Shown: positions 5,939 to 14,395, counted from the stretch's first letter. The stretch is DNA of 20,810 nucleotides from Longivirga aurantiaca (GCF_042660085.1 NZ_JBHSTI010000005.1:334-21143), one strand, 5' to 3'. Numbers and translations are program-made. The notes: generated by a model from the letters alone, not told the origin.

Positions 5939-6229
5939 GTGAAGAATAGCCGCCGGGTCGTCCCGGTCATCATGGACCCGTCGAACGAGTCGCTGATCTC
6001 CTCCGCGGGTGGGTCGCTGTTGCTGGCCACAGCTCGGGCGACCGGCCTGGATCGGGCGCTGTCAGCGGGGTTGGCTCCGTGGCGGGTACCGCGGGCGGTC
6101 CACGACCCGGGCAAGGTGATCCTTGATCTCGCGGTCGCGTTGGCCCTGGGCGGGGACTGTCTCGCGGATGTCGCGGCCCTGCGTGCCCAGCCGACACTCT
6201 TCGGTGCGGTCGCCTCGGATCCGACGGTG
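5939..6229 (+). pseudogene. IS1380-family transposase, N-terminal ~97 codons only (truncated remnant)
   Basis: SLISSAGGSLLLATARATGLDRALSAGLAPWRVPRAVHDPGKVILDLAVALALGGDCLADVAALRAQPTLFGAVASDPTV matches my recollection of the conserved N-terminus of actinobacterial IS1380-type transposases. The similarity stops near 6229 and no DDE domain follows in any frame. Confidence 0.6.
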
Positions 6230-6620
6230 TTGAACCACCCTGGGTTGCTTGGAGGCTCCATCAAACCCAGGGAGGTTCACCGAGGCCGGTCCGACGGCCC
6301 TGGGACCGGTGGCGAAGGACGCCACGTGCATCGAGACACTGCGCGCAAGCCCATCCCTGTCCCCCGCGGCATCAGGTTCTGGTGACGGGCTCGAAGCCAC
6401 GACCCCGGTCACGCGCCCGGCACCGCCAATCACATGCCCACCCGCGTCCTGCACGCCGCCACCGACCAATACCCAGGAGCGTCAGCCGTTCGCCCGCGCG
6501 TGGACCGCGTGGGCTCCCCTTGGGCTAAGCCATGGCCACAAGGGGCCAAACAAGGCCAGCAGAGGGCAAGAGGCTGTTGGGTGAAATTCCCGGAACCCCT
6601 ACAGGACATGGAATCTGTGG

Positions 6621-6663
6621 GGAGCGGGTGACGGGAATCGAACCCGCACTGTCAGCTTGGGAA
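6621..6663 (-). other. 3' fragment of tRNA-Gly(CCC), anticodon loop to acceptor end; att-type remnant, not a functional tRNA
   Basis: The minus-strand sequence reads TTCCCAA GCTGA CAGT GCGGG TTCGATT CCCGT CACCCGC T CC. This gives an anticodon loop with CCC, a 4-nt variable loop, a T-arm, an acceptor 3' strand and the Gly-typical U73 discriminator. The sequence 5' of the loop (GCAAG) cannot pair with GCTGA, and there is no D-arm or 5' acceptor strand. Confidence 0.65.
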
Positions 6664-6685
6664 CTTGCCGGCCTTAGTTCCCAAG

Positions 6686-7660
6686 CTACCCGTTGCTCGC
6701 CGAAGCGATGGCCTCGACGAGGTGGCTGAGGTCTTGGTCGATAGCGGTAACTTGAGCGGTAACGGCGGCAGTAATTGCTGCATCGGTGGCGAGAGCAAGA
6801 CGACCGCGAACCCAAGAGAGGAACTTCCGTGCGGCGCCACCGTCGGGGCGGGCCGACTGCAGGTCGGCCTCGGCGGCGGCCACGAGCTGCTGCCCCTCTT
6901 CTGAGTCACCCGCCAGCTCGAAGCGGCCAAGGATCTTGACCAGGCCACTCATCGCCAAGACGAGTTGCTCACTGGTCACGTCCACGTTCATGACCTGTCG
7001 CGCGTTGTCGCCCGTTGCCACCTGCACCTGTTGGCCGCTGACGTTCCAGGTGATTTGCTGCAACGTCACTGCTTCCCGCGAGCTCACGTACGCGTCGGGG
7101 TCCGAGTCGTACTGCTCCACGCAGACTAGGCCAGCGTCGGTGAGCCGCGGTCGAATAGGCCCGTTGTTGCCGTTCGAGCGCGGACCGTCTATCAACTGCG
7201 TTCGTGCAAGCCACCCTGCCGCACGATCCGATTCTTCGACGGTGAACGGATCTCCGTAGAAGCGGGATAGCCTGCTAAGGCTCCAATCACCCCAGTTCGC
7301 GAACTGCCCGCTTTCCTCCGTGGCGTCCGATTCTGCAAGCCATCGGAGGATGCCGCGTCGGACGGCAGCGCGGCGGCCGAGGACGTCACTGCGTTGTAGG
7401 TGGCGGCGAGTCACGGCGGAACGACCCTCCGGCGTGACCTCTGCAGCCATTCCTGGTAGCCCACCCATCCCGCTGTGGTCACGGATCAAGCCTGCCGCAG
7501 TCAGGCGTGACACGTCCTGATACGCGATACGCGTGTTTTCGGGGTCATTGTCGTAGAAGCCTGCGAGGTATGGGATTCCCTCAGCCTGCTCCACCATCCA
7601 CTCCAGCAGGCGGTGGCCACGCTCAGCGTCGGGGTCGGTATCGACCCAAGGGAAAGTCAT
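6686..7660 (-). CDS. Hypothetical protein (324 aa) with two winged-helix-like repeats and an Ala-rich helical C-terminus
   Basis: Start moved to ATG 7660 (MTFPWVDTDPD...) because the upstream 50 codons of the track ORF are Arg/Cys-rich junk. There is no SD, but TATGAT sits at -12..-7 relative to the ATG, which fits a leaderless mRNA. Internal repeat: LLEWMVEQAEG..AAGLIRD..VTPEGRSAV versus ILRWLAESDAT..GWLARTQLIDG..LTDAGLVCVE. Confidence 0.7.
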   Translation of the reverse strand: MTFPWVDTDPDAERGHRLLEWMVEQAEGIPYLAGFYDNDPENTRIAYQDVSRLTAAGLIRDHSGMGGLPGMAAEVTPEGRSAVTRRHLQRSDVLGRRAAVRRGILRWLAESDATEESGQFANWGDWSLSRLSRFYGDPFTVEESDRAAGWLARTQLIDGPRSNGNNGPIRPRLTDAGLVCVEQYDSDPDAYVSSREAVTLQQITWNVSGQQVQVATGDNARQVMNVDVTSEQLVLAMSGLVKILGRFELAGDSEEGQQLVAAAEADLQSARPDGGAARKFLSWVRGRLALATDAAITAAVTAQVTAIDQDLSHLVEAIASASNG

Positions 7661-7939
7661 GCGCCGATCATATTGAGGTTCCCGCAGCTGCCCGAGGCTT
7701 GAGAATGGCGTTGTGACACCGCTACGGCGGCGCTTGTCGTGGCCTCGACGGCGGCAGCGCAGAACAGCGACCATGTACCGGCGGTCTCGTTCTTCGCACA
7801 GGGTCGTCATTTCGGAGTTGAGAGTGGCCGGTCTCGTTGCCGGCGGGATAGACCGGCGGCATAGAGAGGACGCCGCTTCCCGAGCGACACGTCGAGCGCA
7901 GAGCCACCGCCGTCGGACCCACCCGTCAGAATCATTCGT

Positions 7940-8623
7940 ATGCCTGACTCCTGGGTCGCGTTATTGATCGCACTGTTGGCTGTCGTACCCGGCTTTCTGA
8001 CAGTGACCATTTGGGCTAGGTCGCGGACATGGCGGGGTCCGACTGGTGACCTTCGGACCATCCTTCAAGCACTGGCAATTAGCGCCGTGATCCAGGTGGT
8101 GCTGTTCCCGCTCACTGTCATGGTCGTGTTGCCGCATTGGCGCTCGCCGGATGACTACGCCGTCTCACTTGGGGCATGGCTCCTCCTTACGGTTCTCGCG
8201 TTCCCAGTGGTGTTGGGTCTTGGGACGGCGCGGTTGACCGACTGGGTCTTTCCACTCAGGACGGCCGATACGAACTTCGGCTGGCTCCGACGATTCCTAC
8301 GCGGCGCGATCAAGCCGGTCGCGCCTCCGACGATGTGGGATTGGTGGCTCACCGAAGGTGTCCCGAATGGGCGATTCGTCCTTGCCAAGTTCCGTGATGG
8401 CTCGTATATCGGTGGCGTCTTCTCAGATGGTTCTATGGCGCTGACATCCCCGGAGCCGCACGGCATCTATCTGGCGAGTGAGTGGCTTGTGGATGAGGCA
8501 GGGGACTTCGTGGGCGAGATTCCGCAAACTGGCGGTGTGCTGCTGCCGCTCCGAGAAGACATACTGTGGCTACGGGTTCAAGGCGATAACGGGACGTCAG
8601 AGGTTGGTGACGATCGTGCCTAG
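7940..8623 (+). CDS. Membrane protein with 3 N-terminal TM helices and a C-terminal soluble domain; DUF6338-like (from memory)
   Basis: TM segments WVALLIALLAVVPGFLTVTIW, ILQALAISAVIQVVLFPLTVMVVL and LGAWLLLTVLAFPVVLGLGTA. The C-terminal part is PTMWDWWL..GRFVLAKFRDGSYIGGVF..PEPHGIYLASEWLVDEAGDFVGEIP. Transcribed divergently from 6686..7660. Confidence 0.75.
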   Translation: MPDSWVALLIALLAVVPGFLTVTIWARSRTWRGPTGDLRTILQALAISAVIQVVLFPLTVMVVLPHWRSPDDYAVSLGAWLLLTVLAFPVVLGLGTARLTDWVFPLRTADTNFGWLRRFLRGAIKPVAPPTMWDWWLTEGVPNGRFVLAKFRDGSYIGGVFSDGSMALTSPEPHGIYLASEWLVDEAGDFVGEIPQTGGVLLPLREDILWLRVQGDNGTSEVGDDRA

Positions 8624-8735
8624 TCAGAAGGCGCTGCCGGCGGCGCAGGAGACAAAGGGTCAAGCGCCAGGGTCAGGCAAGGTGCCCTCGACGCCGCCAC
8701 CTCCGAAGCCCAGTGCGACGAGGCGAGGAGCGTGA
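8616..8735 (+). CDS. Mini-ORF 1 (39 aa) VPSQKALPAAQETKGQAPGSGKVPSTPPPPKPSATRRGA
   Basis: GTG 8616 overlaps the stop of 7940..8623 by 8 nt (GTGCCTAG). It shares the G-x-VP-x-x-PPPPK core with the next two mini-ORFs, even though the DNA has diverged. Confidence 0.35.
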   Translation: MPSQKALPAAQETKGQAPGSGKVPSTPPPPKPSATRRGA

Positions 8736-8741
8736 CAGTCG

Positions 8742-8855
8742 ATGGCTGACGATCAGGGGCAGAGAGGCTCGGTCCTCGGCAATGGTCGGGTTCCGAAGAC
8801 CCCGCCTCCTCCCAAGGCAACGCCTCCCAGCAAGCCAAGCGGTAGCAAGTCCTAA
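8742..8855 (+). CDS. Mini-ORF 2 (37 aa) MADDQGQRGSVLGNGRVPKTPPPPKATPPSKPSGSKS
   Basis: ATG 8742 has AGGAG 11 nt upstream. It is in the same frame as mini-ORF 1, separated only by TGA plus two codons. It carries the conserved core GRVPKTPPPPK. Confidence 0.35.
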   Translation: MADDQGQRGSVLGNGRVPKTPPPPKATPPSKPSGSKS

Positions 8856-8874
8856 CGTCGGCGGAAGCGGACCA

Positions 8875-8991
8875 GTGGGAAAGAAGGTGACGGGAGGCGC
8901 CGTCACTGGCAAGGGCGGCGTGCCCAGCAATCCGCCCCCGAAGGCGGGCGACAAGGGAGCTGGGTCCAGGAAGCCGCCGCACGGGGCTTAG
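8875..8991 (+). CDS. Mini-ORF 3 (38 aa; alternative GTG 8887) VGKKVTGGAVTGKGGVPSNPPPKAGDKGAGSRKPPHGA
   Basis: Third copy of the core (GGVPSNPPPK), in a different frame from copies 1 and 2. It forms the C-terminal part of track ORF 8713..8991, whose N-terminal part is Arg-rich shadow sequence. It overlaps the antisense tail of the integrase ORF. Confidence 0.3.
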   Translation: MGKKVTGGAVTGKGGVPSNPPPKAGDKGAGSRKPPHGA

Positions 8992-10525
8992 CCAAAGCAG
9001 GACGGGCCGCGATCCTGGTCACTCGTCCCCGTCTCGTCCCCCAGCAACGATCATGGGTTGACACGAGAGGGCCCATTGGCGCTCGCATCGGGCTGTTCTG
9101 GTACATCCGCGCAAGCGTGACGCCTGCCTGCGACGCCCTCGTAATGCGTAGGTCATCGGTTCGATTCCGATAGGCGGCTCCATCTTCAAGTCTCTGACCT
9201 GCGGCGATGCTGTCGGGGTCACCCTCGGGATCGTCGTCTGAGGGCGAGTTGCTCACATGTTGCTCACGGACTCGCTGGGATGCGTCGTCTGCGCGCGGCA
9301 CGAGGGACCACGCCTTGGCAGCTGCTTCGCTTCCGACGCCGGGCAGCAGGTGGGTGTAGGTGTCCGAGGTGATGGCCACGGAGGAGTGTCCGAGCCGCTT
9401 GCTGACCACGACGATGTCGACGCCGGCGGCGAGCATGAGCGAGGCCTGGCCGTGGCGCAGGTCGTGCAGTCGGATGCGTCGTAGCCCGATCTCTTCGGCG
9501 AGTTCCTGGAAGCGGTCGGAGAGCCGGTCGGGGTGCAGGGGTACGCCGTCGGGCCGGGGGAACACGAGGTCGTGGTCGTTGTAGGCGTCGCCGAGCGGCG
9601 CGCGGGCGGCGTCCTGGCGCAGGCGGTGGGCGAGCAGCACGCCGACCGTGTGCGGGTCGAGGTCGACGACGCGGTCCTCTCCGCTGGCGGTCTTCGGTCG
9701 CCCGAATGCGATGCGCCCGTGGTCGGCGCCGCACTGCGCGCACGGGCGGGAGAAGCGCGCGGTGAGGGTGACGACCTGCTGGCGTACGTGGAGCCGGTTG
9801 CGTTCGAGGTCGACGTCGGACCAGCGCAGCCCGGCCGCCTCTCCGCGGCGTAGACCGGTGGCGGCCAGGAGCTGGAACGCGGGCCCGAGCGGGTCGTGGT
9901 CGGCGTGGTCGAGGAACCGGCCGAGCTCCTCGGGCTCCCACGGGCGCACGCGCGGACGCGGCACCGACGGCAGGTCGATGTTCGCGGCCGGGTTCGTGGG
10001 GATCAGGCGCGACTTCACCGCCGAGCCCAGCGCCGAGCGGAGCGAGGCGTGCACGCGGCGCAGGGTGGCTGGCTTCATCTGACGGTCGGCCTGGATGGAG
10101 CGCAGGGCGCTCTCGACGTCGTGGGGGCTCAGGTCGCGCAGGCGCACGTGCCCGATGCGGGGGATGAAGTACTGATGCACGTGCGCGGTGTACGTCGCGG
10201 CGGTGGTGGGCCGGACGCCGTCGGCGACCTTGCCGGCCAGCCAGTCGAGCAGGAACTGCCCGACGGTGATGCTGTTGACCGCGACGCCGACGCCGCGGGA
10301 GCCGGCGTCGATCACCTCGGCGAGCGCCTTCTCCGCGTCCTTCTTGGTCGCGAACCCGAACCGGGTGAGCTGACGGCGCGCGACGTGCTCGCCGTCCGGG
10401 TTCGGTCCCGGCCCGAGGTCGACGGTGTAGCCCCAGGACCCGTGCTTCTCGGAGCAGGCCTTGCGCCGGCCGCGTGAGTCGAAGACGGCGGGGCACTGGC
10501 AGCGCTTGCGAACGGTTCCGCGCAT
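8903..10525 (-). CDS. int: Tyrosine recombinase / phage-type integrase (ORF runs to the first stop; the last ~130 codons cross the tRNA-Thr fragment and look non-native)
   Basis: N-terminal Cys/His arm-type domain (KRCQCP...CSEKHGSWGYTVDLG). Catalytic residues in context: GLRRGEAAGLRW, HDLRHGQASL, LGHSSVAITSDTYTHL. ATG 10525 is preceded by GAGGGAGGA. Confidence 0.9.
   Translation of the reverse strand: MRGTVRKRCQCPAVFDSRGRRKACSEKHGSWGYTVDLGPGPNPDGEHVARRQLTRFGFATKKDAEKALAEVIDAGSRGVGVAVNSITVGQFLLDWLAGKVADGVRPTTAATYTAHVHQYFIPRIGHVRLRDLSPHDVESALRSIQADRQMKPATLRRVHASLRSALGSAVKSRLIPTNPAANIDLPSVPRPRVRPWEPEELGRFLDHADHDPLGPAFQLLAATGLRRGEAAGLRWSDVDLERNRLHVRQQVVTLTARFSRPCAQCGADHGRIAFGRPKTASGEDRVVDLDPHTVGVLLAHRLRQDAARAPLGDAYNDHDLVFPRPDGVPLHPDRLSDRFQELAEEIGLRRIRLHDLRHGQASLMLAAGVDIVVVSKRLGHSSVAITSDTYTHLLPGVGSEAAAKAWSLVPRADDASQRVREQHVSNSPSDDDPEGDPDSIAAGQRLEDGAAYRNRTDDLRITRASQAGVTLARMYQNSPMRAPMGPLVSTHDRCWGTRRGRVTRIAARPALAKPRAAASWTQLPCRPPSGADCWARRPCQ
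9138..9182 (+). other. 3' fragment of tRNA-Thr(CGT), anticodon loop to CCA; att-type core next to the integrase gene
   Basis: The plus strand reads CTCGTAA TGCGT AGGTC ATCGG TTCGATT CCGAT AGGCGGC T CCA. Upstream there is no GCCGCCT acceptor 5' strand and no D-arm, and the 5' anticodon-stem strand ACGCC pairs at only 4 of 5 positions. Confidence 0.6.
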
Positions 10526-10547: not shown

Positions 10548-10811
10548 CTACTGCGATACCGGACCGGCGACGGTTGCGCCAGCGCTGGGCGGTGAGCCTG
10601 CGGACGACACGCCGGCGCTGTCCGAGTCGTCGACGAGGCGTAGCAACGCAGCGGTGGGGATCCGGATGAGCTTGCCGACGCGCAGGACCGTGGTGGGCCA
10701 CAGGTCGGCTTTGACGAGCTCGTAGGCCAGGGTGCGTCCGATGCCCAGCACGCGCGCGGCTGTGGGCAGGTCGACCAGGGGTGGGAGCTGCTCTATCTCG
10801 GTGCGGTTCAC
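10548..10811 (-). CDS. xis: Excisionase-family helix-turn-helix DNA-binding protein
   Basis: LVDLPTAARVLGIGRTLAYELVKADLWPTTVLRVGKLIRIPTAALLRLV is the typical MerR-like excisionase HTH. GTG 10811 is preceded by AGGAGA at a 5-nt spacing. It ends 22 nt upstream of int. Confidence 0.8.
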   Translation of the reverse strand: MNRTEIEQLPPLVDLPTAARVLGIGRTLAYELVKADLWPTTVLRVGKLIRIPTAALLRLVDDSDSAGVSSAGSPPSAGATVAGPVSQ

Positions 10812-10942
10812 GGGGATCTCCTGACTGTCCGTTGCCCCGCGGCAGCGGTGGCACGACAAGGTGCGCACCGAAGGGCACCGACACGCGTCGGACGCAGACG
10901 GCTGCGTCGCCAGCTGCGTTACCTGGCGGTGTCGGTTGCTGG

Positions 10943-13369: not shown

Positions 13370-14395
13370 ATGGCTCTACGGCTCGGTTACAAGGCGTCCG
13401 CGGAGCAGTTCGGCCCTCGCGACCTCGTCGAGTTCGCCGTCCTGGCCGAGCAGGTGGGCCTCGACAGCGTCGTGACCTCCGACCACTTCCTGCCCTGGCG
13501 CGAGACCGGCGGGCACGCGCCCTTCGCCCTCGCGTGGATGGCGGCCGTGGCCGAGCGCACCGAGCGGGTGATCATCGGCACGAGCGTGCTGACGCCGACG
13601 TTCCGCTACAACCCCGCGGTCATCGCGCAGGCGTTCGCGACGATGGCGCTGCTGGCGCCCGACCGCATCATGCTCGGCGTCGGCACGGGCGAGGCCCTCA
13701 ACGAGATCGCGGTGTCGGGCCGCGAGTGGCCGGAGTTCAAGGAGCGCTCGGCCCGCCTGCGCGAGGCGATCGACCTCATGCGCCAGCTCTGGACCGAGAG
13801 CCACGTCGACTTCCGCGGCGAGCACTACACGACCGTCGGCGCGAAGATCTACGACAAGCCGGCCGAGGCCCTCCCCATCTACATCGCGGCGGGCGGGCCG
13901 CAGATGGCCAAGTACGCCGGCCGCGCCGGCGACGGCTTCATCTGCACCTCGGGCAAGGGCATGGACCTCTACACCGAGCAGCTCATGCCGGCGCTGCACG
14001 AGGGCGCGACCTCGGTCGGCCGCACGGTCGACGACCTCGACCGCATGATCGAGATCAAGATCTCCTACGACCGCGACGCGTGGTCGGCCCTCGAGAACAC
14101 GCGCTTCTGGGCACCGCTGTCGCTCACCGCCGAGCAGAAGCACGACGTGTCGTCGGCCGAGGAGATGGAGTGGCTGGCCGACCAGCTCCCCATCGAGCAA
14201 GTCGCGAAGCGCTGGATCGTCAGCAGCGACCCCGACGAGACCGTGGCGATGATCAAGCCGTACATCGACGCCGGCCTCAACCACCTCGTGTTCCACGGCC
14301 CCGGCCACGACCAGGCCCGGTTCCTGCACCAGATGGCAGAGGACGTCATCCCGAGGCTTCGCGCGATGGAGGCCCCACCTCGTCGGCCGGCCTAG
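13370..14395 (+). CDS. fgd: F420-dependent glucose-6-phosphate dehydrogenase (luciferase-like monooxygenase fold)
   Basis: [42 protein letters not shown]...[10 protein letters not shown]...[27 protein letters not shown] is the characteristic Fgd1 sequence. RBS AAGGAGA lies upstream of the ATG. Confidence 0.9.

Follow-up and report, generated by a model that had tools for sequence, protein, structure and literature searches.

Organization of the locus

The window analysed here, a stretch of 20,810 nucleotides from Longivirga aurantiaca (GCF_042660085.1, NZ_JBHSTI010000005.1:334-21143), takes up nearly all of a 21-kb contig in a high-GC actinobacterial genome of 3.67 Mb. It carries on its plus strand a gene for a membrane protein of the DUF6338 family (7940..8623, 227 aa), which is recognized by the Pfam model PF19865 with an E value of 1.8e-28 and a score of 100 bits, against a cut-off of 26.5. 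Directly 3' of this gene, at 8616-8991, three very short open reading frames (ORFs) follow one another on the same strand. Judging from the comparison of related loci, we consider it very likely that these three ORFs are real, conserved and separate genes for basic proline-rich micropeptides, which together with the DUF6338 gene form a four-gene, operon-like cassette residing on mobile DNA.

ORF1 (8616..8735, plus strand) runs from a GTG at 8616 to a TGA at 8733-8735 and encodes 39 aa; its first 8 nt are also the last 8 of the DUF6338 gene, whose TAG stop codon occupies 8621-8623. ORF2 (8742..8855, plus strand), which encodes 37 aa between an ATG at 8742 and a TAA at 8853-8855, is in the frame of ORF1 and starts 6 nt past the stop of the latter. 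After a gap of 19 nt comes ORF3 (8875..8991, plus strand), which reads in another frame from a GTG at 8875 to a TAG at 8989-8991 and encodes 38 aa, or 34 aa if the alternative GTG at 8887 is used. A Shine-Dalgarno-like GAGGAG, read from the sequence, is found on the plus strand at 8725..8730, inside the end of ORF1 and 11 nt upstream of the ATG of ORF2.

The three peptides share the core [KR]-G-x3-G-x-G-x-V-P-x-x-P-P-P(P)-K. They are rich in proline and glycine, with 6-9 prolines each, carry a net charge of +4 to +6, and contain 3-4 hydrophobic residues per peptide with no hydrophobic segment. The genome, translated in all six frames (7.33 million residues), contains the pattern G.G.VP..PPP three times, each time in one of these three ORFs, which is far beyond chance. 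The coordinates, lengths, cores and frame relations, re-read in the sequence, are those given by the initial annotation of this DNA. Its view that the cores are alike in protein and not in DNA is supported as well, since a repeat search found no direct-repeat family at the DNA level under the three cores. The peptides matched none of the Pfam, NCBIfam or PADLOC models. A search of Rfam gave no matches, no promoter or terminator was predicted above the level of shuffled controls, and folding of the spacer between ORF3 and the attachment-site (att) fragment downstream of it yielded a z of 0.85.

The region had also been described as antisense to the tail of an integrase ORF on the minus strand. 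This is correct for 8903-8991 only; the remainder lies opposite a 120-aa antisense ORF (8620-8982), a frame that is not kept open in either of the two closest related loci, L013 and L014, which are described below.

Conservation in related loci

A DNA search of 41 related genomes with the 401-bp region gave nothing useful, and among 63 genomes of the family DUF6338 reached the Pfam cut-off in no other one. Because the locus is absent from these relatives both by DNA and by DUF6338 profile, it appears to be foreign to the lineage, that is, an import. Related loci were instead reached through metagenomic DUF6338 proteins, the closest of which are 80% (L013), 72% (L014) and 62% (L015) identical to that of the window. 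Small ORFs are found directly 3' of DUF6338 in all three loci, three of them in L013, three in L014 and two in L015, in the same order as in the window. The relative frames of these ORFs vary between loci, and every ORF has a start codon of its own. In L013, for example, a single TGA separates DUF6338 from an ORF1 in the same frame, and ORF2 reads in a different one; in L014, two of the peptide ORFs had already been called by a gene caller. Alignment of the homologous loci, which had been proposed as a way to tell separate mini-ORFs from one long repeat ORF, finds the mini-ORFs kept as separate units in L013 and L014, with their reading frames conserved.

The Shine-Dalgarno-like site before ORF2 is also kept, as a sequence of the AAGGAG or GGAAGGAG type in L013, L014 and L015. 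The counterparts of ORF3 in L013 and L014 begin with an ATG that lies further upstream, and since the window has GTA at that codon, the start of ORF3 is uncertain. In a pairwise score matrix, the best match of each window ORF elsewhere was its positional counterpart (ORF1 with ORF1, ORF2 with ORF2, ORF3 with ORF3). As the paralogues pair by position across loci, the triplication predates the split between the window, L013 and L014, with all copies kept since.

Selection on the reading frames

Over 103 aligned codons, substitutions between the window and L013 fell on codon positions 1, 2 and 3 in the ratio 20:22:58, and those between the window and L014 in the ratio 36:30:67. The ratio of nonsynonymous to synonymous substitution rates (dN/dS, by the Nei-Gojobori method) was ∼0.17-0.19 overall for the peptide ORFs, compared with 0.05 for DUF6338 itself, and in the comparison with L013 it was 0.29 for ORF1 and 0.12 for ORF2; these values are rough, as dS is saturated. 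The initial annotation had named dN/dS as a check; between loci it is well below 1 in all three pieces. Consistently, the codons for the invariant glycines and prolines in 39 distinct copies of the core do not vary in their first two positions (zero entropy), and the third position shows 1.4-1.9 bits. The entropy test is partly circular, the copies having been chosen by peptide similarity; positional specificity and the comparison of orthologues are not. Taken from these alignments, the pattern indicates that the frames are under purifying selection.

Association of the peptides with DUF6338

We gathered 61 DUF6338 loci (284 kb) from genome and metagenome collections by DUF6338 alignment, and ran an iterated profile of the core on their six-frame translations. 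At E<0.01 there were 45 matches, and all of them fall, relative to the 3' end of DUF6338, between about -40 and +560 nt, which accounts for 14% of the DNA scanned. A search for the motif downstream of DUF6338-like genes had been suggested with the initial annotation. At least one match was present in 22 of 50 distinct eligible loci, the match to ORF1 of the window having an E value of 6e-10, and every copy keeps PPP or PPPP. In one locus (L016) two peptide genes, one of them already called by a gene caller, are convergent to DUF6338, and more distant relatives carry two motif copies within one ORF of 56-65 aa.

The surroundings of the peptide-bearing loci are far less constant. Among the more distant ones the neighbours include plasmid RepA, HsdR (the R subunit of a type I restriction system), an ArdC-like protein, integrase, DUF1016 and metabolic genes, and a methyltransferase is also among the varying neighbours; only DUF6338 and the peptides recur throughout. 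The earlier proposal of a family of small basic disordered peptides, selected at the peptide level and tied to a DUF6338-like gene, is borne out by the comparative data.

A search of 1.84 billion database representatives with the profile of the peptide family returned 13 small proteins, none of them named and none with a Pfam domain; the large proteins among the profile matches (P0032, P0034 and P0035) were set aside as unrelated repeat proteins. A search of a plasmid collection gave no match. Profile matches at the 3' end of DUF6338 had raised the suspicion of an in-frame fusion to that protein, and this was rejected, none of the 45 copies in the 61 loci being in frame. Two observations stand apart. 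A database protein of 74 aa (P0041) consists of what resembles the last ∼30 residues of DUF6338 reading in frame into a peptide of the window type, and the DUF6338 tail of locus L092 contains R-G-K-G-A-A-P-R-P; by their sequences, both may be natural protein-peptide fusions.

Comparison with known cassettes

The closest cassette known is 'operon 9' of Pseudomonas (Stutzerimonas) stutzeri ATCC 14405, in which SEP1, SEP5 and SEP2 lie directly behind the DUF6338 gene Pstu14405_RS12030 (PMC10433244). Digest-free mass spectrometry revealed the three small proteins (36, 47 and 41 aa) through 85, 114 and 44 spectral matches, respectively (PMC10433244, Anal Chem 2023). The authors held them not to be conserved beyond P. 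stutzeri and to be possibly de novo genes, and mentioned that small proline-rich proteins might, among other things, be antimicrobial (PMC10433244).

The window resembles operon 9 in having a PF19865 gene immediately upstream on the same strand, followed by three tandem ORFs of ∼35-50 aa that abut or overlap, use two reading frames and encode basic PPP(P)K peptides with no hydrophobic segment. When the peptides of the two loci are compared by eye, both sets are basic and proline-rich, and those of P. stutzeri each have a PPPP(P)K run towards the C-terminus. They differ in that the G-x-G-x-VP of the window stands 2 residues before the proline run, whereas the glycine-rich part of the P. stutzeri peptides is 15-25 residues away from it. 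Moreover, the P. stutzeri peptides have been seen by mass spectrometry, whereas those of the window are known from their genes, and the window-type family is conserved across many loci, in contrast to what the authors held for the SEPs. A further likeness is found on a mobile replicon, the Klebsiella phage-plasmid pJN2-26 (MZ779062.1). It encodes a homologue of DUF6338, 25% identical across 84% of the query, and 10 nt behind this gene begins one for a Lys/Pro-rich product of 43 aa with PSPPPKKP at its end; the two are annotated as hypothetical proteins (UAV86085.1 and UAV86086.1). This replicon differs in having a single peptide gene, in its motif (G-G-Y-Q-P-P-K-K ... P-P-P-K-K-P) and in the phylum of its host. 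The unit in the window is an actinobacterial member, with a compact motif of its own, of a type of cassette for which a single example has been published.

Alternative explanations

Proline runs are established sites of ribosome stalling that depend on the elongation factor EF-P. One may therefore ask whether the three ORFs are translated merely for an effect in cis, where stalling at the polyproline run would set mRNA stability or the relative expression of the genes and the peptides would lack a partner once released. The retention of PPP or PPPP in every copy speaks for such a role. However, a leader peptide would be expected upstream of the gene that it regulates, and the ORFs lie downstream of DUF6338; the peptide genes of L016, which converge on DUF6338, cannot be cis elements of its mRNA at all. 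Selection is also seen on Gly-x-Gly, on Val-Pro and on paralogue-specific residues in the N-terminal part, and in P. stutzeri the peptides accumulate to 44-114 spectral matches. We regard a purely cis-acting role as improbable.

Somewhat more doubtful still is an export of the peptides as antimicrobial, bacteriocin-like products, with DUF6338 as their exporter or immunity protein. Tandem paralogous peptide genes beside a small membrane protein do resemble bacteriocin loci, and an antimicrobial role has been floated for proline-rich small proteins (PMC10433244). Yet the peptides have neither a signal peptide nor a double-glycine leader nor a hydrophobic segment, and no ABC transporter, peptidase or modifying enzyme is found in the island of the window or in the related loci. 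Inspection by eye also shows none of the PRP-type repeats that known antimicrobial peptides rich in proline contain.

The initial annotation had left open a third explanation, a decayed gene, in which one repeat protein, or a proline-rich tail of DUF6338, has been broken by a nonsense mutation and a frameshift. This would account for the common frame of ORF1 and ORF2, which are separated by one stop codon and 6 nt, and it could draw on the distant relatives that carry two motif copies in one ORF, on the resemblance of P0041 to a DUF6338 C-terminus running into a peptide, and on the tail of L092. It is not borne out for this clade, where loci with a DUF6338 only 72-80% identical to that of the window retain the division into three ORFs, with other frame relations and an ATG for each ORF. 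The low dN/dS of all three pieces, the lack of any copy in frame with DUF6338 (0 of 45 in 61 loci) and the detection of separate peptides in P. stutzeri likewise speak against decay, and make it very improbable. The least probable explanation by far is that the motif is a DNA-level feature, either the shadow of a gene on the minus strand, a condition that the initial annotation had itself named, or a set of arm-type integrase-binding sites belonging to the att site. In its favour, 140-510 nt separate the region from the att core, and an arm-DNA-binding domain forms part of the integrase. Against it, third codon positions are almost free and positions 1-2 fixed, no DNA repeat family underlies the cores, neither L013 nor L014 keeps the antisense frames open, the motif tracks DUF6338 and not att sites even in loci with no related integrase in their flanks, and a better arm-site candidate, a tandem TCGTCCCC at 9020-9045, lies outside the ORFs. 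The decayed repeat protein and the DNA arm sites can both be considered essentially excluded.

The DUF6338 protein and a possible role for the peptides

If the ORFs are separate peptide genes that belong with DUF6338, as we favour, the structure of the partner protein becomes of interest. Its AlphaFold2 (AF2) model, built with 24 homologues, has a mean predicted local distance difference test (pLDDT) score of 76 and comprises three long helices (residues 5-28, 38-66 and 74-103) and a C-terminal beta domain (residues 145-214, pLDDT ∼75-90). The best 50 fold matches of this beta domain in the PDB were all Sm/LSm proteins (Foldseek E ∼1e-2; TM-score ∼0.5-0.6 on the target), and a search of the DUF6338 profile against the sequences of solved structures gave nothing significant. 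The partner is modelled as three membrane helices joined to a putative, cytoplasmic Sm-like barrel. Its C-terminal domain may have a fold like that of Sm/LSm proteins, for example archaeal SmAP (PDB 1th7 and 1i8f), and differs from these in that it is tethered to three membrane helices and has no sequence match to solved structures. Clusters of lysine and arginine follow helix 1 and helix 3, from which, by the positive-inside rule, the beta domain is predicted to be cytoplasmic. The peptides, because they have no hydrophobic segment, should share the cytoplasm with it.

SH3-like barrels commonly bind proline-rich ligands. With this in mind, one may speculate on a mechanism in which the peptides remain in the cytoplasm, attach there by their proline-rich core to the Sm-like (SH3-like barrel) part of DUF6338, and thereby tune or neutralise the activity of what is probably an oligomeric membrane protein. 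We put forward such binding and modulation tentatively, with rather less than even confidence. That the activity concerned is a membrane-directed exclusion, abortive infection or addiction function serving the mobile element is more speculative, and on the whole unlikely. A more specific version would have DUF6338 form a ring-shaped membrane pore by means of its Sm-like domain, with the polyproline micropeptides as stoichiometric cytoplasmic plugs or gates. According to this speculation, synthesis of the peptides would need efficient polyproline translation, and a fall in their supply, through phage takeover of translation or through loss of the element, would open the pore. Such a pore has a small chance of being correct; if it were, it would represent a new peptide-gated exclusion, abortive-infection or addiction module on integrative elements, plasmids and phages.

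Several observations weigh against parts of this interpretation. The first concern the ORFs themselves: the start of ORF3 is uncertain, as described above, ORF1 and ORF3 are preceded by weak Shine-Dalgarno-like sites, and the saturation of dS limits what the dN/dS values can carry. In L014 (a Logan contig; 1998-2700), DUF6338 has a premature stop codon where the E-W of the window has become E-stop, and the three peptide genes are intact, which could reflect decay, a sequencing error or a function of the peptides that is independent of DUF6338. The pairing of DUF6338 with peptides is also not obviously universal. Across the class DUF6338 is distributed patchily (28 of 401 genomes, in 20 of 174 genera), and in an unbiased class-wide sample of 26 other DUF6338 loci, whose proteins are at most 33% identical to that of the window, none matches the peptide profile. 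By eye, about 11 of these 26 have a coupled small ORF of a different type, K-R-G-G-Y...P-P-P, and a strict, post-hoc regular expression matched at 4 of 25 class-wide loci, an enrichment of 12-fold. With respect to peptide binding, an AF2 model of a natural read-through in L013 (DUF6338, its TGA read as glycine, and ORF1) gave a pLDDT of 37-39 for the peptide, with a bump to 55 over V-P-S-V-P-P-P-A-K-S only. With respect to defence, the PADLOC 2.0 models match neither DUF6338 nor the three peptides nor three of the four neighbouring ORFs tested, the exception being the distal ORF at 13370-14395.

Genes of such micropeptide size are almost never annotated. To the cassette known from P. stutzeri, the window contributes a subfamily from the actinobacteria, whose core of 18 residues is sharply defined and whose three anciently diverged paralogues are clearly under purifying selection. 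In the light of the related loci, the pairing of DUF6338 with the peptides looks like an inherited, mobile, two-part unit and not an accident. Being made of four small genes, it offers a compact and tractable system for studying the role of polyproline micropeptides and the ligands of a membrane-anchored Sm-like domain.

Mobile-element context

Downstream of the peptide genes, the plus strand carries at 9130..9183 a partial copy of tRNA-Thr(CGU), from the anticodon arm to the CCA end, which represents the att fragment; ARAGORN found no intact tRNA in the window. Of this fragment, 53 nt match an intact tRNA-Thr on another contig of the same genome (C3:26817-26893) and 46 nt match a segment at C8:11366-11411. 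The genome (G000) therefore holds three att segments of tRNA-Thr(CGU), namely the intact tRNA with an integrase on C3 (C3:26817-28071), the fragment in the window and the 46 nt on C8, the last of which adjoins ORFs with no Pfam match. The three copies suggest tandem or serial integrations at tRNA-Thr(CGU).

The integrase ORF of the window (8903..10525, minus strand) belongs to the tyrosine integrases, with matches to Pfam Phage_integrase, Phage_int_M and Arm-DNA-bind_4. Its catalytic domain ends at residue 393 of 540. The ORF meets no stop before the att fragment and runs through it for ∼100-150 codons as a non-native tail, whereas related integrases (the C3 copy and that of L014) have 380-385 aa, the C3 integrase being a paralogue that lies 3' of the intact tRNA. 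Recombination at the att site may have changed the 3' end of the window's integrase gene. Next to it, on the minus strand at 10548..10868, is an excisionase-like gene with a weak match to Pfam HTH_17 (E 3e-4, below the curated cut-off), whose product is 52% identical to that of a gene beside the cassette in L014.

Comparable surroundings are found in the closest related loci. The same att fragment follows the peptide genes in L013, an integrase homologue (35% identity) accompanies the excisionase-like homologue (52%) beside the cassette in L014, and in L015 an intact tRNA-Thr(CGU) lies 134 nt upstream of DUF6338. In this respect the cassettes recall the integrase-proximal cargo ('moron') slots of actinobacterial elements that integrate into tRNA genes: that of the window lies between island genes on one side and the att fragment, integrase and excisionase-like gene on the other, and those of L013, L014 and L015 adjoin an att fragment, a related integrase with an excisionase-like gene, or an intact tRNA-Thr(CGU). 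The likeness is one of location only, the other loci being found beside plasmid RepA, HsdR, ArdC-like or housekeeping genes.

To the left of the att fragment, a stretch of 25 nt (9017-9041) contains the tandem TCGTCCCC, and 24 of its 25 nt recur at C3:26949-26973 of the same genome, 56 nt downstream of the intact tRNA-Thr and within the 3' end of the gene for the paralogous integrase. By its sequence, this stretch is a candidate arm-type site.

A gene of 374 aa (6686-7810, minus strand) on the other side of DUF6338 has no match in Pfam, NCBIfam or PADLOC. Its product was considered as a further member of the cassette and rejected, as no homologue is present in any of 60 related loci. Just past the stop codon of this gene, at about 6618-6650 on the minus strand, is a second tRNA-like 3' fragment, comprising the T-arm and acceptor end of a different tRNA. 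The two tRNA fragments, in inverted orientation, bracket the 374-aa gene, DUF6338 and the peptide genes. Further out, a fragment of a DDE transposase (5939-6385, plus strand) matches the first ∼100 of the 435 positions of PF13701. The GC content is 61-66% around 6500-9000, as against ∼69-70% in the flanks. The region of roughly 5.9-11.5 kb looks like a small, decayed island. Its flanks are made of ordinary metabolic genes, which encode an amidotransferase, an AMP-binding enzyme, a transaldolase, a luciferase-like monooxygenase and an ABC permease, and a distal ORF (13370-14395) matches PADLOC PDLC01078, an oxidoreductase of a candidate system.

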